Shown here piece after piece: positions 7,868 to 26,909 of a stretch of DNA of 64,000 nucleotides. The DNA is from Alphaproteobacteria bacterium (GTDB lineage: Bacteria; Pseudomonadota; Alphaproteobacteria; UBA9219), in NCBI GenBank assembly GCA_013286365.1, contig JABDFY010000008.1, forward strand, positions 199 to 64,198, in the 5' to 3' direction. The notes under the pieces are model-generated. The model worked only from the letters and a program-made list of their open reading frames with translations. It was not told the origin of the DNA and searched no databases. Position 1 is the first letter of the stretch. Every line of letters starts with the position of its first letter. The translations under genes were made by a program, and so were the position numbers.

Positions 7868-9679
7868 TTAAGCATGGATGGCGTGAATCTTAGGGTCTGA
7901 ATTTACGTTCATACTGAGAATATAGGGAATACGGATATCAAAACGTGCCCCTTGATAGAGACTTGATGAGACCTTGATCGAGCCCCCCAATAGCCTCACT
8001 TCGCGCTCAACCGCCTCCATGCCAACGCCGTGCCCCGACAACTCATTGATGTCATCACGCGTTGAGATGCCCCATGAAAAGATATGTTGAATGACCGTTT
8101 GATCGTCTTCAAACCGCCACGCCCCATTAGGATCGCTCGCGGCCAACTTGGCACGGACACGCGACGGATCGATACCATTACCGTCATCGCTGATTACAAT
8201 GCGCAGCCATTCTTTCTTTTCATCACCGATAACAATTTCGGTATGAATAGCAACTTGGCCCATGGGATCTTTGCCGCGCGCTAAACGTGTTACAGGGGCT
8301 TCGATACCATGATCGGCAATATTGCGACAGACGTGCGTCAGCGAGAATAACAAGCCCTGAATAGGTTGTGTCAGCACACGTGGATTACTGCCCGTGTAAC
8401 GGATCGGTTTCACTTGTTTACCCATGATGGCGGCAAGCTCTTGTAATTCACGGTCAAAAGAACGAAAACAATCATTGATCGGAACGGCCGCAATCGAGCT
8501 TAGAAACCGACGCACAAGTTCGGGATCTGCGTGCCTGGCTTCCATCTCACGCGCAAAATCATAAACCGTCGCTTCTTCAATTTCATGCATATTGCCGCGC
8601 CACTCATAATCGCTACCGATCAAGTCGCGCACTTCGTTCATGACACGCGCAAGGCCAGCAGCAACTTTTTGACGGCCGGCACTGAGCTCCAATTGAAAAG
8701 CTTCATCGGTAACAATCGCTTCGCTACGCAAATCTTTTTCAATCTGATTAATAATATCGCCTAGTTCTACTAAACTAAAATGTTTAACCGTTGCCTTTAA
8801 AGTGTGCAGTGAGCGTAATATAGGCGCCGCCTCTTCGCGCTTAACTTTGGGCCCTTCGGCAGCTTCTAGAAACTCGCGTAACTGAGTTAGGGTCGCGCGG
8901 AACTGATTGCGTTCCCTGAAGATGCGGCAAATCATGTTGGCAAAGTTCTGTTGTTGTTTGGCGCGTTGCTGCGCTTCATATTCTTCGGTTTGGTCGGTGG
9001 CAATGACCACGACTTGCATGAGAGATCCGTCTTTGGCCCGAATGGGACGATACATCAGACTGATGCGACGGCCTTGGCTGTGCGGGAAGAACTGAGGCAT
9101 AAAGGCGATAACGTCATCAAAACCAAGGGCATGGTTGGGCATAAACAGAACGTCCATCCAGTCCTTAAAATCAACGCGCTGAGCTTCAGGTATATGCAGC
9201 ACATCTACGACGCTTTTATCCGCCGGAACTGTTTCAAGTAAATCGATACAGGCCTGGGAATAGACCGGACCACATTTGCCTTCAATATCGAATACGAGAA
9301 ACCCCTGACCTAGACTATTAACGAGAACTTCTGTCAACCGCGCTTGTTGACTGACATGCTCATGAACACGGTAGTTCATGTAGTAAAGTCCAGCAATGCC
9401 CACAAAGGCAGCCAAGGTCATGATGACAAAAGCGAAAACCTGGTTGACAGGAGGGTAGCCAAAGACCGGCAACGCCACCGCATACAGCAACATCAGAACA
9501 ATGGCCGTCATGCCGGCAAGAGACGTATGAATGATGTCAACCTGGCGGATGGCTTCCGTCAGCACCGTTTTATTTTCGGCGTTAGCGCGCGATGGCTGCA
9601 CGTCCTTTGCCATGCCCGCGGAAGCTGAAGAAGTCTTTTTTTTGGAAGTATGGAACATGGCAGTCCATTTTTCCGCCAT
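7868..9679 (-). CDS. membrane-anchored CheA-type histidine kinase (TM-TM, PAS-like, HPt, HATPase; no CheW-like P5 domain)
   Basis: 603 aa with two hydrophobic helices near residues 55-100. The HPt-like site is LHTLKATVKHF. The CheA-type N-box is HVCRNIADHGIE, G1 is SDDGNGID and G2 is SGHGVGM. The protein ends about 45 aa after G2. Confidence 0.8.
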   Translation of the reverse strand: MAEKWTAMFHTSKKKTSSASAGMAKDVQPSRANAENKTVLTEAIRQVDIIHTSLAGMTAIVLMLLYAVALPVFGYPPVNQVFAFVIMTLAAFVGIAGLYYMNYRVHEHVSQQARLTEVLVNSLGQGFLVFDIEGKCGPVYSQACIDLLETVPADKSVVDVLHIPEAQRVDFKDWMDVLFMPNHALGFDDVIAFMPQFFPHSQGRRISLMYRPIRAKDGSLMQVVVIATDQTEEYEAQQRAKQQQNFANMICRIFRERNQFRATLTQLREFLEAAEGPKVKREEAAPILRSLHTLKATVKHFSLVELGDIINQIEKDLRSEAIVTDEAFQLELSAGRQKVAAGLARVMNEVRDLIGSDYEWRGNMHEIEEATVYDFAREMEARHADPELVRRFLSSIAAVPINDCFRSFDRELQELAAIMGKQVKPIRYTGSNPRVLTQPIQGLLFSLTHVCRNIADHGIEAPVTRLARGKDPMGQVAIHTEIVIGDEKKEWLRIVISDDGNGIDPSRVRAKLAASDPNGAWRFEDDQTVIQHIFSWGISTRDDINELSGHGVGMEAVEREVRLLGGSIKVSSSLYQGARFDIRIPYILSMNVNSDPKIHAIHA

Positions 9680-14848: not shown

Positions 14849-15382
14849 TTATTTCTTCTTACCTTCTTTTCGGCGAATACGCTCGCCCTCGTATTTGATA
14901 CCCTTGCCTTTGTAAGGTTCCGGTTTTTTCAGCGCCCGAATTTCAGCAGCCACTTGACCGACTTTTTGCCGATCGGTTCCGGTTACCGAGATAAGTGTCG
15001 GTTTTTCGGCCTTGATCGTAATGCCTTCTGGCGCCAGATACTTAACTTCATGGCTAAATCCGATTTGCAGAACGAGATCCTTGCCCTGAATAGCCGCACG
15101 AAAACCAACACCTTCTATTTCAAGTAAAGTCTTAAAACCGTCGGTTACGCCTTTGACCATATTATTAATATTATTACGCGTTGTTCCCCATAACACCCGG
15201 GCCCGCGGCGTATCTTCGTGCATCGCAACAGCCACCTTACCGTCAGCAACTTTGACGTCGATTTCGTTAGGGCAAAGCAGTGACAAGTTACCGAGCTTGC
15301 CTTTAATGGCAATCGTATGACCTTTCACTTCGGCTGAAACGCCTTGCGGCAAAGCCACGGGATATTTACCGACGCGCGACAT
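14849..15382 (-). CDS. rplF: 50S ribosomal protein L6
   Basis: Starts MSRVGKYPVALPQGV and ends in KPEPYKGKGI. Confidence 0.95.
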   Translation of the reverse strand: MSRVGKYPVALPQGVSAEVKGHTIAIKGKLGNLSLLCPNEIDVKVADGKVAVAMHEDTPRARVLWGTTRNNINNMVKGVTDGFKTLLEIEGVGFRAAIQGKDLVLQIGFSHEVKYLAPEGITIKAEKPTLISVTGTDRQKVGQVAAEIRALKKPEPYKGKGIKYEGERIRRKEGKKK

Positions 15383-15399
15383 GACTTAACTCCAATTCC

Positions 15400-15798
15400 T
15401 CAAAAGATTCGACATAGCACTTCGCCGCCAACATTCTGCGCACGCGCTTCGTTATCAGACAAAACACCGCGCGGCGTGGACAGTATCGAAACACCAAGTC
15501 CGTTAAACACACGACCCAGATCCTTGATCCCTGCGTACACACGACGGCCGGGCGTCGACACCCGCTCAATTTTACGAATGGCGCCACTGCCTTCATGGTA
15601 TTTTAGTTCAATCGCCAGGATCGCTTGCGATTTACTATGCTTCACTTCGCTGAAGCCGCGAATATAACCTTCACGCTCCATAGCCTCCAGTACCCGCTTA
15701 CGAAAAGCGGAAAAAGGACATTCTACAACCGGCATATTGGCCATCTGGCCATTACGAATGCGGGTTAACATATCACCTAATGGATCACTGACGGACAT
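15400..15798 (-). CDS. rpsH: 30S ribosomal protein S8
   Basis: The internal Met gives MSVSDPLGDMLTRIRNG, the canonical S8 start. The upstream part of the ORF overlaps rpsN and is not S8-like. Confidence 0.93.
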   Translation of the reverse strand: MSVSDPLGDMLTRIRNGQMANMPVVECPFSAFRKRVLEAMEREGYIRGFSEVKHSKSQAILAIELKYHEGSGAIRKIERVSTPGRRVYAGIKDLGRVFNGLGVSILSTPRGVLSDNEARAQNVGGEVLCRIF

Positions 15799-15811
15799 TC
15801 GTGTCCCTCCC

Positions 15812-16117
15812 CTACCAGCTCGATTTGATAATGCCGGGAATCTGGCCTGATGAGGCCAGTTCACGAATCTTGATACGGCACAATTTAAACTTACGATAAA
15901 CACCGCGCGGGCGACCGGTAAGTTCACAACGATTATGTTGGCGAACTTTGGCCGAATTCCGCGGCAGTTTGGCTAGCGCCATGACAGCATTAAAACGATC
16001 TTCCATCGACGTTTCTTTGTCCATGATGGTCGCTTTTAGCTTGTCATGCTTGACCTTGTATTTTTTTGCCAAACGACGACGTAACTTTTCTTTTTCAATG
16101 AGGCAGGATTTTGCCAT
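15812..16117 (-). CDS. rpsN: 30S ribosomal protein S14 (long, non-zinc form)
   Basis: 101 aa ending in [11 protein letters not shown]. Confidence 0.93.
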
Positions 16118-16129
16118 TGGTTGTTCTCC

Positions 16130-16711
16130 TTAACCTTGGAACGGCATGTCGAAAGCCCGCAATAAAGCGCGCGCTTCGTCATCCGTCTTAGCTGTTGTAC
16201 AGATTACAATATCCATGCCGCGGATTTCGTCGATTTTGTCATAATCGATTTCCGGAAACACGATCTGTTCTTTGAGGCCTAGGGCATAGTTACCTTGACC
16301 ATCGAAGCTTTTTGGCGACACGCCACGGAAGTCGCGCACACGGGGAAGCGCTATATTGACCAGGCGATCGAGGAACTCATACATTTTCTCGCGGCGCAAG
16401 GTTACCTTGCAGCCGATGCCAAGTCCGCCACGTACTTTGAAAGTCGCAATAGCTTTACGCGCGCGCGTGATGACCGGCCTTTGACCCGCGATAAGCGCCA
16501 ATTCTTCGGCAGCATTTTTGGTCTTCTTGCTGTCATTGACGGCTTCGCCAACGCCCATATTGATGACGATCTTCTCCAACCGTGGCACAGCAAGCCCGTT
16601 CTTATAACCAAACTCCTTGACGAGTTTGGGACGAATGGTCTCCCTATAATGTTGTTCCAAGCGTGGAACGTATTTTTCTGCTTTTCTAGCTGTCATTTTA
16701 TCAATCCTCAA
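16130..16711 (-). CDS. rplE: 50S ribosomal protein L5 (start may be the Met at 16696)
   Basis: Contains INMGVGEA...[14 protein letters not shown]...FPEIDYDK. Confidence 0.93.
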
Positions 16712-17031
16712 TCAATCAATTCGCCGGAACGTTTGGCAAATCGTACTTTGCGGCCATGTTCGGCCGTTTTAAAACCAATGCGCGTTGCTTTGTTATCTTT
16801 CGGATCAACATGCGCCACGTTCGAAGCATGAATGGGCGCTTCGCGACGCACAATGCCGCCTTGTGGGTTTTGCTGTGACGGACGGGTATGACGCGCAATC
16901 ATATTCACGCCCGAAACAACCACACGGTTTTCCTGAGGCAATACAGTCGTCACTTCGCCGATTTTGCCTTTGTCTTTGCCGGTGATGACAATCACGCGGT
17001 CTTTCTTTTTAAGCTTCATTTTCGTCACCAT
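16708..17031 (-). CDS. rplX: 50S ribosomal protein L24
   Basis: Contains [19 protein letters not shown], a KOW motif. Confidence 0.93.
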
Positions 17032-17399
17032 TAGAGCACCTCTTCAGCCAAAGAGATGATTTTCATAAAACCTAGACTGCGCAGTTCGCGCGTCACGGGC
17101 CCAAATATACGTGTACCGATAGGTTCCTTATCTTTGTTGATCAGAACGGCGGCGTTGCGATCGAAGCGGATGAGGCTTCCGTCACTGCGGCGCAGGGCGA
17201 ATTTCTGGCGAACAATCACTGCTTTATGAATATCGCCTTTCTTAACTTTGCCACGCGGAATAGCGTCGCGGATCGAAACTACGATAATATCGCCAATCGT
17301 AGCGACCTTGCGCTTTGAGCCCCCCAGCACTTTGATGCACAGCACGTGCTTAGCACCGCTGTTATCGGCTACATCAAGAACTGATTCCATCTGGATCAT
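17031..17399 (-). CDS. rplN: 50S ribosomal protein L14
   Basis: Starts [17 protein letters not shown] and ends in AEEVL. Confidence 0.96.
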
Positions 17400-17434
17400 G
17401 ATACTTAACCTATCTACCTTCTAGTTCTATTCAT

Positions 17435-17668
17435 TTAATTCGTACCATAACCAATACGAAACACAGTCCTCAACAGACGGCCCACTGGCCCTCTCTCAGA
17501 TTCCGCATCTAGGCCGGAATTTCCTTGAAACCACTTCCGTTTCCCCTCGAAAGCCTCCGCCAGGGTCCCGGCTCTCGGTTCTCCCCTTCGTGCATTTTCT
17601 GGAATAAACCTGATTGCTTGCAGGCCCAAACCTGTCCTATGAGGGGATTTATAATCAGAGCTACTCAT
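17435..17668 (-). other. 77-codon ORF or structured leader RNA filling the rpsQ-rplN spacer; nature unresolved
   Basis: The ATG lies 2 nt after the rpsQ TAA and is preceded by GGAGGAG. Against a coding role, the ORF is rich in AGG/AGA/CGA/CGG Arg codons, which are rare in the neighbouring genes. The region also has several short stem-loops, for example 17500-17520 and 17527-17543. Confidence 0.25.
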
Positions 17669-17670
17669 AA

Positions 17671-17952
17671 TTAATTCTCCTCCGTTTTATTGGTCTTTGG
17701 TTTAATTTTCTTTGCCGTGTCCTCATTACTAACGAGGGCCCAACGTTTACTTTTGCTGATCGGCGCACACTCGACGATTTGCACTACATCGCCAATTTTG
17801 CGGCTATTTTTTTCATCATGAGCCGCATATTTCTTGGATGTGCGAATATATTTTTTATAAAGCGGATGCATAACGCGACGTTCGACGAGAACCGTAATGG
17901 TCTTGTCGGCCTTGTCACTGACGACCGTTCCTTGCAATATACGACGCGGCAT
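17671..17952 (-). CDS. rpsQ: 30S ribosomal protein S17
   Basis: Starts [26 protein letters not shown]. Confidence 0.95.
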
Positions 17953-17973
17953 TTTAGCTCCTCTTTATCCTTC

Positions 17974-18261
17974 CTAAGCAGATTTCTTGGCCGATTTTGC
18001 GGCCGGTTTTGCAGCTGATTTCTTGGCCGCAGGTTTTACCGTAGCTGTTCTGACAACACCCCTTTGACGTTCACCTGTGACAGCCATGATTTTGGCAATC
18101 TCTTTGCGTACATGTGTCACGCGCGCCGTGTTAGCGAGTTGACCCGTAGCTTTTTGAAAACGCAGATTGAACTGCTCCTTACGCAATTCAGTCAGGCGCG
18201 TTTCCAGCTCTTTTTCTGTCTTGAGCCTGATATCGGCTGTCTTAACTGTATTTTTTGCCAT
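17974..18261 (-). CDS. rpmC: 50S ribosomal protein L29 with Lys/Ala-rich C-terminal tail
   Basis: The internal Met directly abuts the rplP stop. Contains LRKEQFNLRFQKATGQL. Confidence 0.9.
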   Translation of the reverse strand: MAKNTVKTADIRLKTEKELETRLTELRKEQFNLRFQKATGQLANTARVTHVRKEIAKIMAVTGERQRGVVRTATVKPAAKKSAAKPAAKSAKKSA

Positions 18262-18262
18262 G

Positions 18263-18676
18263 TTACGCTGCCTCACGCTGAACAAATTTCGTTTTAATCG
18301 GCAATTTGGCTGCGGCAAGACCAAAAGCTTCTTTGGCAACTGCTACCGGCACGCCATCCATCTCAAACATGATGCGACCAGGATGTACGCGGCACGCCCA
18401 AAATTCTGGCGTACCTTTGCCGGAGCCCATGCGAACTTCGGCTGGCTTGCGCGAGACAGGCACATCTGGAAACACAAGTATCCACAATCTACCTTGCCGC
18501 TTCATAGCCCTTGTAATGGCACGACGCGCGGCTTCGATCTGACGCGCCGTGACGCGTTCTGGCTCAAGCGCCTTAAGGCCATAGGCGCCATAGCTAAGAC
18601 GGAAGCCGCCTTTGGCAGCGCCGTGAATGCGGCCCTTATGTGCTTTGCGATATTTGGTGCGTTTTGGCTGTAACAT
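18263..18676 (-). CDS. rplP: 50S ribosomal protein L16
   Basis: Starts [16 protein letters not shown]. Confidence 0.96.
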
Positions 18677-18694
18677 GGTTCTTTCCTATATCCC

Positions 18695-19378
18695 TTATGC
18701 CCGCTGCGGCTGACCTTCGAGGATACGCTTTTCTTGCGCCATCGGGTCATGATCAAGAATTTCGCCACGAAAGATCCAAACTTTGACGCCACAAGTTCCC
18801 ATCGTTGTGAAAGCTGTCGCAACGCCATAATCCACGTCAGCACGCAGGGTATGCAAAGGAACACGTCCTTCGCGGTACCATTCCATACGCGCGATTTCAG
18901 CACCGCCCAAACGGCCACCGCAATTAATACGAATGCCAAGAGCCCCAAGGCGCATGGCAGACTGCACGGCACGCTTCATGGCGCGACGAAAGGCAACGCG
19001 GCGTTCAAGCTGATTGGCAATATTATCAGCAACTAACTTTGCATCGATTTCAGGCTTACGGATTTCAACAATATTGAGACTAACTTCGGCGCTTGTCATC
19101 TTTGCCAAATCAGCGCGCAGCTTTTCTATATCCGCGCCTTTTTTGCCAATAACAACGCCAGGACGAGCCGAGTGAATGGTCACCCGTGCTTTCTTGGCAG
19201 GACGCTCAATAATAATACGGGCGATACCGGCTTGCTGACCAAGGCGTTTGATCAAGAAATCACGAATTTTCAAATCCTCATGCAACAAATCAGCATAGCC
19301 ATGTCCCGAGAACCAGCGGCTATCCCAAGTACGATTAATGCCAAGGCGCATACCGATTGGATTAACTTTCTGACCCAT
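18695..19378 (-). CDS. rpsC: 30S ribosomal protein S3
   Basis: Starts [22 protein letters not shown]. Confidence 0.96.
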
Positions 19379-19380
19379 GG

Positions 19381-19851
19381 TTAGGCTCCCGCCGCAACGG
19401 CTTGCGCCGGCGCTTTAGCTGTTTTTGTTTTTGTCGAGCTTTTACCCTTCACTTTTTTCTCCTCGGATTTCTTGTCTTCAACCTTGTCTTCCCGTTCCTT
19501 GACGACAATCGTCAGATTGCTAAACGGCTTTTCAATTCCAGCACTGCGGCCACGGCCGCGCGTTTGCATACGCTTCATAACAAAACTACGGCCAACCCAA
19601 GCCTCGGCGACATAAAGCTTGTCGACATCAAGAGCATGATTGTTTTCTGCGTTAGCAATAGCGGCTTGCAGAACTTTCTTTACGTCTTGCGCAATACGGC
19701 GTCTTTCGAAATTCAGCTGCGTCAAAGCAACGCTGGCAGCTTTCCCACGAATACTAGCTGCAACCAAATTAAGCTTCCGTGCCGATGTACGGATGGCGCG
19801 GGCCTTGGCCAGCGCCTTCCCATCAGCTTGTTTGCGTTCCGTCTTCGCCAT
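19381..19851 (-). CDS. rplV: 50S ribosomal protein L22 with Lys-rich C-terminal tail
   Basis: L22 core reads [17 protein letters not shown]...[11 protein letters not shown]. Confidence 0.93.
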
Positions 19852-19854
19852 GGG

Positions 19855-20151
19855 TTAGCTCCCTGTACCTTCTGTCTTTTCCACCTTCTTGTCGGCGACA
19901 CTGTGCGCCTTAAAGAAGCGGGTCGGTGCAAACTCGCCAAATTTATGACCGATCATGTTTTCGGTTACCGAAACCGGTAAAAACTTATTGCCGTTATAGA
20001 CGCCAAAAGTTAGGCCCACGAACTGCGGCAAAATCGTCGAACGCCGTGACCAGATTTTGATGATCTCATTGCGTGTTGAACCACGGGCTTTTTCTGCTTT
20101 CTTAAGCAGATAGCCATCGACAAAAGGACCTTTCCATACTGAGCGTGACAT
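19855..20151 (-). CDS. rpsS: 30S ribosomal protein S19
   Basis: Starts [18 protein letters not shown]; contains [11 protein letters not shown]. Confidence 0.96.
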
Positions 20152-20162
20152 CTTATCTCCTG

Positions 20163-20417
20163 TTATCCATTCGCTGCATTTTTGAAACCTGTGAAACGCT
20201 TGATAGCGTCTAATATAGGCATACGGTTAGCGCGCGGATGGAGCGGAACTACCTGCGCATCTACACCACGAGCTTGATGATGCTCCGCAGGTGGGATCAA
20301 TCTAATGCCGTCCTTGTTGATCAAGTGCCCTCCCTCATCAACCCTATTACCATTGGCATCACACCAATAGCTGTCAGGAACACCAGTCGAGAAGTCGTAA
20401 ACGTATCTATCTGTCAT
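20163..20417 (-). CDS. 84-aa hypothetical protein inserted between rplB and rpsS
   Basis: The ATG at 20415-20417 lies 8 nt after the rplB TGA. It has GAGGG as a Shine-Dalgarno sequence (cgTGAGGGCCAAGATG). Its TAA lies 11 nt before the rpsS ATG. The ORF exactly fills a 274-bp gap that is normally about 10-20 bp. Confidence 0.5.
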
Positions 20418-20425
20418 CTTGGCCC

Positions 20426-21271
20426 TCACGCTGCCTGACGATCGCGGCGCTTATTAGCGCGGCGAATAATCTGACGATCGGTGCGTTTATTCTTTCTCGT
20501 CTTGGTACCTTTGGTGCCTTTGCCCCATGGCGTTACCGGATGACGACCACCTGAGGTACGGCCTTCGCCGCCACCATGTGGATGGTCAACCGGGTTCATG
20601 ACAACACCACGAACGGTCGGCCTTACACCGCGCCAACGTTTACGACCTGCTTTACCAAGTTGTGTGTTCATATGATCGGCGTTTGATACCGCCCCAATGG
20701 TTGCCATGCATTCTTGTGGAACGATGCGCAACTCGCCAGAAGAGAGTTTAATCTGTGCAACGCCTGTGTCTCTGCCAACCAACTGCACATAGGTGCCTGC
20801 AGAGCGTGCAATTTGGCCACCCTTACCAGGACGCATCTCAACATTATGGATGATGGTGCCTACAGGAATGTTTTTGATCTGCATGGCATTGCCTGGCTTA
20901 ATATCGACTTTGTCACCAGAAATCACAACATCGCCTTTTTGCAGACGCTGCGGCGCCAAAATATATGATAGGGTGCCGTCTTGATATTTTACGAGAGCGA
21001 TGAACGCTGTGCGGTTGGGATCATACTCCAAACGCTCGACAGTTGCGGTCATATCATTTTTACGACGTTTGAAATCGACAAAGCGATAACGGCGCGCATG
21101 ACCGCCACCAATATGGCGCGTGGTAATACGGCCCTTATTGTTGCGACCGCCTGTTTTGCTCAAGCCTTCGGTTAAAGCTTTAACCGGCTTACCCTTCCAT
21201 AGTTCTGAGCGATCAACTTGAATGACCTGCCGCAGACCTGGCGTAACTGGATTATATTTTTTAAGTGCCAT
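20426..21271 (-). CDS. rplB: 50S ribosomal protein L2
   Basis: 281 aa; contains [25 protein letters not shown]. Confidence 0.97.
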
Positions 21272-21281
21272 AGCCCTACCC

Positions 21282-21611
21282 TCAGAGTCCTGTCGTCACA
21301 TCGATTGTGTTGCCTTCGACCAGCGTCACAATTGCGAATTTCACATCGCTTCTTTGACCGATACGGCCCTTAAAGCGCTTTTCCTTGCCTTTGCGGTTAT
21401 GCGTGTTCACAGCTTTTACTTTAACCTTAAACAGGGCTTCAACGGCCGACTTGATAATCGGTTTTGTCGCCTTCCGCGCAACGCGAAACGTCACCTGATT
21501 ATGTTGCGATCCATTCGTTGCCTTCTCGGTAATCACAGGCGACAAGATCACCTGATAAAATGGCGCCAAATCCGATGGCGGTGTTTTCTCTTTCTTCTTT
21601 GCCGCGCTCAT
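21282..21611 (-). CDS. rplW: 50S ribosomal protein L23
   Basis: Contains [12 protein letters not shown]...[11 protein letters not shown]. Confidence 0.93.
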
Positions 21612-22228
21612 TTCAATCTCTCCTGCAGCTGCTCAACCGCGTTCTTGGTCAACACCAAAAAGTCGCGGCGCAAAATGTCATATACATTAGCGCCTTGCTC
21701 GGGCAGCACGTCGATGTGCTTTATATTGCGCGCGGCCTTGGTAAAATTCGGATCAAGATTGGCGCCATCGATAATTAAGGCCGAGGCTAAGCCAAGCTTT
21801 TTAAATTTTCCTGCCAGCGCCTTGGTCTTGTGGTCCGTTGTTTTGGCACTATCGAGGACGATGAGCTTACCGTCTTTTTGCTTTGAAGCCAAAGCCATGC
21901 GCAGAGCTAACTGGCGCACTTTTTTCGGCATGTCATGCGCATGATCGCGCACAACAGGTCCAAAGATAATACCGCCTTTGCGGAATTGAGGAGAACGCAA
22001 GCTACCCTGACGCGCACGACCTGTGCCCTTCTGGGCCCAGGGTTTTGCCGTCGTACCACTGACATCGCTGATGCCTTTGGTTTTGTGGTTGCCAGAACGG
22101 CGTTTGGCCAACTGCCAATTGACCATGCGCGTTAAAATATCGCGGCGTGGCTCTACAGCAAAGATGGCATCGAGCAAATCAATCTCGCCAACGTCCTTGT
22201 TCTCTAGATTTTTGATCTTCGCTTTCAT
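21608..22228 (-). CDS. rplD: 50S ribosomal protein L4
   Basis: The internal Met gives [18 protein letters not shown]. Also contains [28 protein letters not shown]. The upstream part of the ORF overlaps the rplC tail. Confidence 0.93.
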
Positions 22229-22250
22229 ATCTCTTCTCGCACTCTCTTGT

Positions 22251-23018
22251 TTATGCCGCTTTTTCGGCTTTTTTCTCGGTTTTAGCTTCAGGCTTATCGG
22301 CCTTTTTCTCAGGCTTCTTTTCACCCTTACCGTCAATCTTGGGCTTAGCTACAACCTTCTTGGGCGCGCTGCCTTTAATGGCATCGCGTATTTGTACGTA
22401 AGTACCCTCAGCCCCAGGCACGCTGCCTTTAATCATGACCAAGCCCTGTTCGGCATCGACGGCCACGACTTCCAAATTCAAAGTCGTCACGCGCCTATCA
22501 CCCATGTGCCCTGCCATTTTCTTGCCCTTAAACACGCGACCAGGATCTTGGCGATTACCGGTTGATCCATGACTACGATGAGAAATGGAAACACCATGCG
22601 ATGCGCGTAACCCTTTAAAATTATAGCGCTTCATAACACCGGCAAATCCTTTACCGATACTGGTCGATGTTACGTCGACAAAATGGCCAGGCGTAAAGTG
22701 TGAAGCCAGAAGAGGTGTTCCGACTTCTAAAAGAGCATCATCGGTAACACGAAATTCTATCAACTTTTTCTTGGGCTCGGTTTTAGCTTTGGCGTAATAG
22801 CCGCGCATTGGCTTCGATACATTTTTAACTTTGGCTTTACCGCCGCCAACCTGGATCGCGGCGTAGCCATCTTTCTCTTTTGTACGCACAGCAACAACCT
22901 GACAGTCATCAAGCTTCAGAACCGTCACGGGCACATGCTCGCCATCTTTATTGAAAACGCGCGTCATGCCCAGCTTGGTGCTGATCAGTCCGGTACGCTT
23001 TGTCTGTTTCTGAGGCAT
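22251..23018 (-). CDS. rplC: 50S ribosomal protein L3 with about 45-aa Lys-rich C-terminal tail
   Basis: Contains [13 protein letters not shown]...[11 protein letters not shown]. Confidence 0.95.
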
Positions 23019-23029
23019 GATACTTATCC

Positions 23030-23338
23030 CTAAACTCTAATCTCAACGTCAACGCCAGCTGCGAGATCAATTTTCGACAAGGCGTCAATGGTTTGTGGTG
23101 TCGGCTCAAGAATATCCAGCAACCTGCGATGCGTTCTGATTTCAAACTGCTCGCGCGATTTTTTATCGACATGCGGACCGCGATTGACAGTAAAACGTTC
23201 AATCCAGGTCGGTAGCGGAATGGGCCCACGGACCTGCGCACCCGTGCGCTTAGCCGTGCTTATGATCTCGCTCACGGACTGATCCAGCGTGCGATGATCA
23301 AACGCTTTAAGGCGTATGCGTATCGTTTGTGTTTCCAT
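23030..23338 (-). CDS. rpsJ: 30S ribosomal protein S10
   Basis: Contains [16 protein letters not shown]...PLPT. Confidence 0.96.
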
Positions 23339-23545
23339 GTCTTTCTTAACTCCTAACCTAAACCTCTTTTATTCTTACAATCTTGTCTTATTCCCTCTGG
23401 TCGCATGCGCAAACCAAACGTTGGTGCATATAGTCTCCGCGTTAGCGATATTCTTTCCACTAGCAGCCATTTTGCATAATCGCTCCACATCCCTTCAGTA
23501 ACTTGATGCGAAAGCTTCTTGGCCACTATCTATCTTTCTATCTTT

Positions 23546-23579
23546 AATTCCCTCACCGCCTTGGGGAGATGAGGGAATT
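23546..23579 (-). terminator. 10-bp inverted repeat hairpin immediately after the tuf stop (possible attenuator or terminator before the S10 operon)
   Basis: AATTCCCTCA (23546-23555) pairs with TGAGGGAATT (23570-23579). No clean U-tract follows on the minus strand, so the function is uncertain. Confidence 0.35.
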
Positions 23580-23589
23580 TATTTCATTC

Positions 23590-24777
23590 TTACTCAACGA
23601 TCTTTGCCACAACGCCAGCACCTACGGTACGTCCACCCTCACGGATGGCGAAACGCAAACCTTCGTCCATCGCAATCGGCGCAATGAGGTGGATTTCAAC
23701 CGAGATGTTATCGCCGGGCATAACCATTTCTGTACCCTGCGGCAGGATCACTTCACCGGTTACGTCCGTTGTACGGAAATAAAACTGCGGACGGTAATGG
23801 GTAAAGAACGGTGTATGACGACCACCTTCATCCTTGGTGAGAATGTAACATTCGGCCTTGAATTTGGTGTGTGGCGTAATTGAACCAGGTTTCGCCAACA
23901 CTTGACCGCGCTCAACTTCTTCGCGCTTCGTGCCACGTAACAAGGCGCCAATGTTATCGCCAGCCTCGCCTTGATCTAGCAGCTTACGGAACATTTCAAC
24001 GCCGGTTACAACCGTTTTAATCGTCGGCTTTAGACCAACGATTTCGATTTCTTCGTTGACCTTGACGATACCACGCTCGACGCGACCTGTGACGACCGTG
24101 CCACGACCGGAGATTGAGAATACGTCTTCGATCGGCATGAGGAACGGCTTGTCCTTGGGACGATCAGGTTGCGGGATAAAGGTATCCACAGCTTCCATAA
24201 GTTTAAGGATCGCCTGCTCACCCAACTCGGGGTTCTTATCTTCAAGTGCGCATAGCGCCGAACCACGAATGATCGGCGTCTTATCACCGGGGAACTGATA
24301 CTTTGTCAGAAGGTCGCGAATTTCCATTTCCACGAGCTCTGCCAATTCAGGATCCGCCATATCCATCTTGTTCATGAATACAACAATGGCAGGAACGCCT
24401 ACCTGACGAGCCAGAAGGATATGCTCACGCGTTTGCGGCATAGGACCATCAGCTGCCGACACGACGAGGATGGCGCCATCCATTTGCGCGGCACCTGTAA
24501 TCATGTTCTTAACGTAGTCAGCATGACCGGGGCAATCGACATGCGCGTAATGGCGTTTTTTCGTTTCATACTCAACGTGAGCTGTCGAAATCGTGATACC
24601 GCGCGCTTTTTCCTCAGGGGCCTTATCAATTTGATCATAGGCCGTATAGGTTGCGCCGCCCGTTTTTGCCAATATCTTGGTTATGGCCGCCGTTAATGAC
24701 GTTTTGCCATGATCAACGTGACCAATGGTGCCAATATTGCAGTGAGGCTTATTACGGTTAAACTTTTCCTTCGACAT
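23590..24777 (-). CDS. tuf: elongation factor Tu
   Basis: 395 aa; contains [16 protein letters not shown]...DCPGHADY...NKMD. Confidence 0.98.
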
Positions 24778-24827
24778 CTTCCATCTCCATTCGTTGAAGA
24801 ACTGTTACGTGTTTTCTTGTTACTTAC

Positions 24828-26909
24828 TTATCCGGCCAACTTGGTCTTCACTTCTGTCGCAATTGCTTGCGGCACTTGTTCGTAATGATCAAACTCCATC
24901 GTGTACATCGCCCGACCTTGCGTCATGGTGCGCAGCTTGTTGACGTAACCAAACATGCGCTCCAAAGGCACCTTTGCATCTATTGTCCGTGCATTGCCAC
25001 GTTGATCAAGGTTTTCGATCTGTCCACGGCGACTATTTAAATCGCCGATGACATCGCCCATGTACTCTTCAGGGGTCACAACTTCGACCTTCATGATCGG
25101 TTCCAACAAAACTGGACCGCATTTGGGCAGCCCTTCTCTGAAGGCCGCGCGCGCAGCGATTTCAAACGCCAGGGCTGACGAATCCACATCATGGTAAGCA
25201 CCGTCAACCAGCCTTGCCAGAAAATCGATGGTCGGAAAGCCAGCAACAACACCATTATCGATCGAGGCTTCAAGGCCTTTTTCAACGCCTGGGATAAATT
25301 CTTTTGGCACAGAACCGCCAACAACCTTGGTTTCAAAGACAAACCCGCTTCCCGGCGGCAATGGCTCAAACTCAATAATAACGCGTGCAAACTGGCCCGA
25401 ACCACCCGACTGCTTCTTATGTGTGTAATCGATGGTCGATTTGCGTGTAATTGTTTCGCGATAGGCTACCTGCGGAGAACCAACGGTAACTTCAACGTTG
25501 TAGGGTGCGCGGCGTAAAATATCGACCTTGATTTCGAGATGCAGCTCACCCATGCCCTTGATCGTCGTCTGACCTGTCTCTGGATTGGTGGCAAGACGGA
25601 AAGATGGATCTTCCTGCACCAAGCGTAACAAAGCATTAGTCATCCTGTCTTGATCGCCTTTTGTTTTAGGCTCGATCGCCATTTCGATGACAGGCTCAGG
25701 GAATTCCATTTTAACGAGAACAATCGGTTTTACGGGATCGCACAGAGTATCACCAGTTTTGGTGTCCTTAAGAGCTGCCAAAGCGACAATATCACCAGCA
25801 TAAGCTTCTTTGATCTCTTCACGCGAGTTGGCATGCATCAAAAGCATACGGCCGATGCGTTCACGCTCGCCCCTTATGGTGTTCTGAACGTAACTGCCGG
25901 CATTGAGGGTGCCTGAATAAATGCGCGTAAATGTCAACGAGCCAACAAAAGGATCGGTCATGATCTTAAACGCCAGCGCCGAAAACGGTGCCGTATCGCT
26001 TGGCGGACGCTCATCAGGATCCTTACTGTCCACTTTAAAGCCTTGAACATTGCCAACATCAAGAGGTGACGGGAGATAATCCACGACCGCATCAAGCATC
26101 GGTTGCACGCCTTTGTTCTTAAACGAAGCGCCACAGAGGACAGGGATAAATTTACGACTGATCGTGCCTTTACGAATACATTTATCGAGCAGCTCGACGG
26201 ATGGTTCTTTGCCGTCAAGGTACGCTTCCATCGCCGCGTTATCCATTTCAACGGCTGTCTCGAGCAGCTTGTGACGATATTCTTTGGCTTTATCAAGAAG
26301 ATCAGCTGGGATTTCTTCGTCATGGAACTTGGCGCCAAGCGCTTCATCTTCCCAAACGACAGCTTTCATCCGGCGCAAATCGATGATGCCTTTAAATTCA
26401 GATTCAGATCCGATAGGCAAATTGACAACCAACATGTTGTCGCCAAAACGATCCTTGAGCATATCAAGGCATCGGTAAAAATTAGCGCCAATACGATCCA
26501 TCTTATTAACGAAGACAATCCGCGGCACATGATACTTATCGGCCTGACGCCAAACCGTTTCCGTTTGGGGTTCAACACCAGCCACGGCATCAAGCAGGCA
26601 GATAGCGCCATCGAGCACACGCAAGGAGCGCTCAACTTCAATTGTGAAATCGACGTGACCGGGAGTATCAATGATATTAATGCGGTGCTTGTTCCAGAAA
26701 GTCGTGGTCGCAGCAGACGTAATCGTGATGCCGCGCTCTTGTTCCTGCTCCATCCAATCCATCGTCGCCGTGCCTTCATGGACTTCACCGATTTTATAGG
26801 ATTTACCGGTGTAATACAGAATGCGTTCGGTCGTGGTCGTCTTACCGGCATCAATGTGTGCCATGATGCCGATATTGCGATACATCTCGATGGGCGTTTG
26901 ACGTGACAT
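24828..26909 (-). CDS. fusA: elongation factor G
   Basis: 693 aa; contains [19 protein letters not shown]...DTPGHVDF. Confidence 0.98.

Follow-up and report, generated by a model that had tools for sequence, protein, structure and literature searches.

An ORF fills the rplB–rpsS spacer

No gene order in bacteria is regarded as less prone to change than that of the ribosomal protein operons. In the source genome, rplB and rpsS of the S10 operon are separated by 274 nt (20152..20425, minus strand), and this gap consists almost wholly of one co-directional ORF, named here ORF84. All positions refer to the 64,000-nt stretch of DNA analysed (the window).

Upstream of the gap, rplB (L2, 281 aa) occupies 20426..21271 of the minus strand in the ORF list and ends with a TGA at 20426-20428. 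The Shine–Dalgarno-like GAGGG of ORF84 (20423..20427, minus strand) overlaps this stop and lies 5 nt upstream of the ATG at 20415-20417. ORF84 itself (20163..20417, minus strand) comprises 84 codons plus a TAA at 20163-20165, and its predicted product has a mass of 9.3 kDa and a pI of 6.9. The TAA is followed at a distance of 11 nt by the ATG of rpsS (20149-20151), with an AGGAG (20157..20161, minus strand), the Shine–Dalgarno sequence of rpsS, in between; rpsS (S19, 98 aa) is listed at 19855..20151 of the same strand. Read 5' to 3' on the minus strand, the spacer is GGGCCAAG ATG ACA GAT ... AAT GGA TAA CAGGAGATAAG. The original prediction placed the stops, the starts, GAGGG, AGGAG, the 274-nt gap and the 84-aa product correctly to the base, and its description of a non-random ORF with proper translation signals, sited within the S10 transcript, also holds.

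The source assembly is a fragmented draft of 1.95 Mb in 75 contigs, 81% complete and probably metagenome-assembled, and it is the only member of its genus in our sample of the family. Its flanking genes are well conserved: rplB is 78–86% identical to that of 49 family members and rpsS is 82–95% identical across the family. Family members that lack an insert usually have GGAGATA(A/G) as the rpsS leader.

Coding potential of ORF84

On the sense strand, the insert has one stop in the frame of ORF84, against seven and nine in the other two frames. Among 5000 dinucleotide-preserving shuffles, 0.22% contained a start-to-stop ORF of at least 84 codons (P = 0.0022) and 3.6% any open stretch of that length (P = 0.036). 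Coding potential was scored with a three-periodic Markov model trained on 713 long ORFs from the source genome. With +0.023 bits per codon, ORF84 has the top score of the six frames and is exceeded by only 3% of 1258 shadow ORFs; nevertheless, real genes do better, with 94.5% of their 85-codon windows scoring higher, which places it near the 5th percentile. GC contents at the three codon positions (0.576/0.424/0.447) are close to those of the genes of the genome (0.573/0.426/0.469). The codon adaptation index (CAI), calculated with the cluster's ribosomal genes as reference, is 0.623, compared with 0.48 and 0.52 in its own off-frames. This value corresponds to the 15th percentile of ordinary gene windows (0.678 +/- 0.055) and lies below that of every ribosomal gene in the cluster (0.70–0.79). 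ORF84 is unlikely to be a chance ORF. Considering the stop, coding-score, codon-position GC and CAI results, the stretch looks coding-like, yet it resembles a weakly adapted or young gene, unlike its neighbours.

Translation of ORF84 is very likely, because its Shine–Dalgarno sequence and ATG are placed at the very point at which ribosomes on an abundant mRNA complete rplB. Neither a sigma-70-like promoter nor an intrinsic terminator was detected in the insert, and the S10 operon appears to be continuous through it.

ORF84 is an orphan

As the original prediction suspected, the product belongs to no recognisable family: Pfam, PHROGs and NCBIfam gave no match, and neither did the RHS and YD profiles of Pfam. 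A word-indexed search of 5.8 billion protein clusters retrieved no relative but ORF84 itself, in a cluster with one member from one contig. No homologue was detected in a six-frame search of 60 related genomes (best E = 0.016) or in back-translated scans of metagenome and viral contigs. The protein is not conserved in the 54 other species of the family, nor in the samples of the order and the class, and the six frames of the source genome contain no second copy. The original prediction had called for a search for homologues at the same junction and named a frame that is not conserved in relatives as an outcome that would refute it. The rplB–rpsS junctions of the family genomes were checked, and no ORF84 homologue was found there. 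Formally, this outcome refutes the prediction; yet it arises because no relative has the ORF84 sequence at all, and no broken frame was seen.

One match was retrieved by an exhaustive phmmer search of 1.84 billion representatives (E = 3.6e-12, 62 bits). This protein, P0002, is a 779-aa acidic repeat protein encoded on an ENA metagenome contig. The 62 bits add up from nine alignments, in each of which residues 2-40 of ORF84 pair with a copy of a single repeat; the best single copy reaches 14.8 bits and an HMM of the repeat 21.6 bits. In a library of 2.4e11 residues, about 44 bits are needed for a single unit to be significant. Because one unit stays far below this value and the repeat copies are not independent, P0002 was set aside as a homologue and is treated as a hint. 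What the match leaves is a weak hint of a beta-hairpin motif in ORF84, in agreement with the structural model described below. P0002 contains at least nine copies of a YD-like repeat of about 40 aa ([ST]DGYYYAVSSV..Y.DANG..VDE.GYLLDDEGN.L) in which no family was recognised, and which may be an undescribed beta-hairpin repeat.

AlphaFold2 (AF2) was run on the single ORF84 sequence and returned a model with a mean pLDDT of 58.5, confident only at residues ~16-40 (pLDDT ~77-83). The model consists of short beta-hairpins in this region, a short helix at residues 68-75 and an otherwise disordered chain. Residues 16-40, encoded at 20298..20372 of the minus strand, are the sole part predicted to fold, and they resemble a single unit of the P0002 repeat, at a score that by itself is not significant. 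Foldseek searches with this low-confidence model retrieved nothing at E < 0.35.

A variable slot at the rplB|rpsS junction

Both rplB and rpsS were located in all 55 species-level genomes of this uncultured alphaproteobacterial family, and the gap was measured in the 50 in which they lie on one contig. The original prediction expected a spacer of 10–20 nt, which is indeed the normal state: the gap is 11–24 nt in 36 of the 50 genomes, and 52 nt in one more (G061). The remaining 13 (26%), including the source genome, carry inserts of 210–1109 nt. Besides the 274 nt of the source genome, these measure 724 nt in G003, 1109 nt in G008 and 217 nt in G009, as well as 282 and 468 nt in the two species of genus g8 and 303 and 283 nt in the two species of genus g12. 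In genus g7, five of 19 species have inserts of 210–520 nt, and the other 14 have a short spacer (11–52 nt). Outside the family, an insert of about 210 nt is present in two species (G046 and G048) of genus g27 in the neighbouring family f3.

Adjacent junctions served as controls. The rplW–rplB spacer never exceeds 35 nt in the 46 genomes measured, none of which has an insert, and the rpsS–rplV spacer exceeds 73 nt in just one of 50. That genome, G016, is the sole family member with an insert at this position, of about 480 nt between rpsS (24193-24471) and rplV (23272-23694) on contig C202. A second control covered the other alphaproteobacterial families, with one genome per family and both genes on one contig; a 106th family (G096) has them on separate contigs. 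None of these 105 families has an insert between rplB and rpsS, and the distance between the two matches is at most 55 nt in 104 of them. The single enlarged spacer, in G170, measures about 117 nt between the matches. Since both controls are nearly free of inserts, these results show that the inserts are specific to the rplB|rpsS junction in this family. Our literature searches found no paper describing inserts at this junction.

The contents of the slot vary, and its architecture is nearly constant. The filling is nearly always a single co-directional ORF that ends shortly before a fresh Shine–Dalgarno sequence for rpsS. In 13 of the 14 inserts of relatives, the ATG is located 0–14 nt past the rplB stop and behind a Shine–Dalgarno sequence. 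The same architecture as in ORF84 recurs, with other ORFs, within the family (12 other species) as well as in the neighbouring family. Slot ORFs range from 64 to 238 codons, with one ORF per slot except in G008, which has two. On a tree of rplB and rpsS the filled state requires at least nine changes, a count to be read with the poor resolution of that tree, in which 7 of 46 branches are well supported. With the same limit, the source genome is basal to the clade that contains most carriers.

Unrelated genes occupy the slot in relatives

One slot family is shared by G065, G071, G072 and G073 of genus g7 and by G023 of genus g8 (blastp E-values of 1e-6 to 1e-26). An HTH-like motif, T-[LM]-x-E-I-x-x-x-T-G-L-S-P-D-Q-V-R, is present in its members, most of which have W-x-P-G-[VI]-x-F at the C terminus. 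From the alignment of this family, AF2 predicted a winged helix preceded by a long helix at the N terminus (pLDDT 73.7). The top Foldseek matches of this model were winged-helix domains (RPC39, TFE-alpha, MarR/ArsR), none of them significant (E >= 0.06). In G073 the slot gene (contig C9, 40630-41150) has a frameshift that splits the N-terminal helix from the HTH part, and is either a pseudogene or affected by an assembly error. The 52-nt spacer of G061 (contig C239, ~9600-9657) retains only the last seven codons of this gene (R-E-P-G-V-D-F) and its stop; the slot gene was therefore once present in this species and was later deleted.

The slot ORFs of the two g12 species gave sub-threshold MarR/ArsR matches and E-values of 0.03–0.06 to the HMM of the g7/g8 family, and they look like weak winged-helix proteins. 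No mutual similarity, either in protein or in DNA, was detected among the slot ORFs of G007, G066, G009, G003, G008 and the source genome, and none of the six resembles the g7/g8 family. Unrelated fillings occur even within genera, since G007 belongs to the same genus as G023, and G066 to that of the g7 carriers. The slot proteins of the source genome, G072 and G003, the three that were queried, are all singletons in the collection of 5.8 billion clusters.

Two further fillings stand out by their composition. In G046 and G048 the slot ORFs encode proteins of 64–66 aa with a pI of about 12, conserved between both species, and these are the best candidates among all fillings for an RNA- or ribosome-binding protein; the slot protein of G007 has a pI of 11.1. 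The largest filling, the 1109 nt of G008 (contig C36, 33057-35299), contains two highly charged, low-complexity ORFs, one of 112 aa with a pI of 4.5 and one of ~132 aa with a pI of 9.9, with untranslated gaps of more than 100 nt. This filling may carry its own signals.

ORF84 and the g7/g8 gene share an identical slot and identical coupling signals and differ in their predicted products, beta-hairpins and disorder in the former and a long helix with a winged helix in the latter. We considered whether ORF84 could be a diverged or frameshifted version of this gene. The family HMM gave no signal in any of the three sense frames of the insert (E >= 12), blastp retrieved nothing, and neither the HTH motif nor any DNA similarity to other inserts was detected, so a winged-helix relationship was rejected.

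Constraint and turnover of slot genes

Homologous slot genes could be compared in two pairs of species. In the comparison of G072 with G073, dN is 0.34 for the slot gene and 0.039 for the flanking rplB, with omega values of 0.32 and 0.056, respectively. For G046 and G048, dN is 0.42 for the slot gene (omega = 0.24) and 0.031 for rplB. When dS is taken from the flanking genes instead, omega of the slot genes is about 0.5. By dN, slot genes in these two pairs evolve approximately 10 times faster than rplB. These contrasts in omega and dN indicate that homologous slot genes are real and under weak-to-moderate constraint. Slot genes are also easily lost, and the predicted winged-helix gene of g7 and g8 has often been deleted.

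What ORF84 is likely to be

The reading that we favour, and hold to be somewhat probable, is that the S10 operon of this lineage has a variable slot for small genes between rplB and rpsS, which in the source genome is filled by ORF84. Most probably, ORF84 is an orphan that can be dispensed with and whose translation is coupled to that of rplB. It would be transcribed on the S10 polycistronic mRNA, and ribosomes finishing rplB would re-initiate at its Shine–Dalgarno sequence and ATG. The product would be a small, neutral and largely disordered cytoplasmic protein, a young or fast-evolving orphan and not a component of the ribosome. Part of the selection on ORF84 may be for the open frame alone, since an untranslated gap of 274 nt would uncouple rpsS and risk polarity downstream. 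An open frame would keep ribosomes on the mRNA, and rpsS and the nine ribosomal genes downstream of it would thereby escape polarity.

The original prediction went further and suggested, from its placement, that ORF84 may be a lineage-specific ribosome-associated factor, produced in stoichiometric amounts with L2 and S19. The location within the S10 operon with coupled translation signals is what such a factor would have, and very basic slot proteins exist in some relatives (pI ~12 in f3 genus g27 and 11.1 in G007). ORF84, with its pI of 6.9, contrasts with the flanking ribosomal proteins (10.0–11.2), and its CAI of 0.62 is lower than that of any ribosomal gene of the cluster (0.70–0.79). Neither the 54 other family genomes nor the samples of order and class contain ORF84, the slot of relatives being empty or occupied by unrelated genes, and no RNA-binding family or known ribosomal fold was found in it. 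A ribosomal role is unsupported given the neutral pI, the below-average CAI and the lack of conservation, and we consider it improbable.

More serious, although still unlikely, is that ORF84 is filler or a relic, leftover or neutrally evolving DNA whose frame is kept open to spare the operon uncoupling and polarity, or has simply not been broken yet, and whose peptide, if made, has no function of its own. Its orphan status in every search, its coding score and CAI at the low end of the range and the mostly disordered AF2 prediction all fit this idea. So does the fate of slot genes in relatives, which are frequently deleted without consequence, as indicated by the short spacers of 14 of the 19 g7 species and the remnant in G061, and which in G073 are frameshifted. 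However, homologous slot genes in relatives have an omega of approximately 0.24–0.5 and not 1, and the frame of ORF84 has gene-like GC contents at the three codon positions and is clearly better than the off-frames. Furthermore, deletion of the insert is evidently easy, as G061 illustrates, so a useless insert should be lost rather than maintained.

Two further readings were considered. Autoregulatory RNA structures are common in the long spacers of ribosomal operons, and the insert could be a regulatory or structured non-coding RNA (an internal leader, an attenuator or a small RNA) with an incidental ORF. Yet Rfam gave no match at E <= 1 in positions 15000-25000 of the window, the folding energy is no better than that of shuffled sequences (z = -0.24), the insert has no promoter- or terminator-like site and shares no conserved sequence with other inserts, and the asymmetry of stops between frames indicates coding; this makes an RNA spacer highly improbable. 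We give equally little credence to a mobile-element scar or cargo, which the original prediction named as an outcome that would refute it, or to an assembly artefact. Here the observations in favour are a 9-nt imperfect direct repeat, AAGATG(A/T)CA, at the starts of ORF84 and rpsS, and the fragmentation of the draft into 75 contigs. The repeat was tried as a target-site duplication of the rpsS start and rejected, because start contexts from the same genome match no better (4.2/12) than those from different genomes (4.0/12). The ends of the insert lack inverted repeats, neither the 274 nt nor the encoded protein has a second copy in the 1.95-Mb assembly, and the composition of the insert matches both the genome and the surrounding DNA. 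As for an artefact, the insert lies in the middle of a 64-kb contig, between intact flanking genes in the expected order.

Alternatively, the variable slot may be one instance of something more general. The rplB|rpsS junction would then be a recurrent expression slot in distant lineages, at which small proteins are born or captured, are coupled to translation at the levels of ribosomal proteins and are soon replaced or lost, and ORF84 would be a de novo or newly captured gene at an early stage. This broader scenario is rather unlikely in our judgement. Some occupants could graduate to ribosome- or nucleic-acid-binding factors, with the pI-12 proteins of f3 genus g27 and the winged-helix family as candidates.

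Comparison with known systems

Like ORFan genes, ORF84 is short, free of homologues, restricted to one lineage and less well codon-adapted than the neighbouring core genes. ORFans evolve fast, and so do slot genes where relatives could be compared. ORFans are, however, usually described from islands or the vicinity of mobile elements and with promoters of their own, whereas ORF84 has no transcription signals of its own, is wedged inside one of the most conserved operons and would depend on translational coupling. The slot also resembles the integration hotspots of pangenomes, in which one interval between core genes, empty in most genomes, receives varied cargo and the neighbouring intervals are invariant. 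It differs from them in that the cargo is a single ORF of 64–238 codons (two in G008) rather than a multi-gene island, in the lack of an integrase, a tRNA, att-like repeats or a compositional shift, and in its position inside an operon of essential genes. Lineage-specific ribosomal proteins such as bTHX, bS22 and bL37 are small like ORF84; their genes, too, lie among or close to those of other ribosomal proteins, and model organisms lack them. They are, however, highly basic and conserved across the whole of their lineages, in contrast to ORF84, which has a pI of 6.9, occurs in one genome and is poorly codon-adapted.

The main interest of the locus is the rplB|rpsS slot rather than ORF84 itself. 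In an operon type known for its fixed gene order, a tight junction has become the specific gene-turnover site of this family, filled in 26% of genomes, whereas 0–2% have an insert at the adjacent junctions and none of 105 other families has one between rplB and rpsS. It offers a natural system in which to study how new small genes come to be expressed by riding on essential mRNAs, how much additional translation an essential operon can bear, and whether lineage-specific ribosomal or nucleic-acid-binding proteins begin in this way. For annotation, such ORFs should be treated as real features, and their position alone is no ground for giving them ribosomal-protein names.

Other features of the ribosomal protein cluster

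A second long spacer, of 271 nt, separates rpsQ from rplN (17400-17670 of the window, minus strand) and contains a 77-codon ORF (17435..17668). This ORF looks non-coding: its coding score is -0.073, its GC contents at the three codon positions (0.54/0.54/0.45) are atypical, and its CAI of 0.50 equals off-frame values. RNA folding of the spacer gave z = -0.49, and the spacer is probably the boundary between the S10 and spc operons. Within the cluster (16700-23340 of the window), L3, L22 and L29 have tails rich in Lys, Ala and Glu. The rplD ORF as listed overlaps the tail of L3, and its true start is probably the internal MKAKIKNL at about position 22228.
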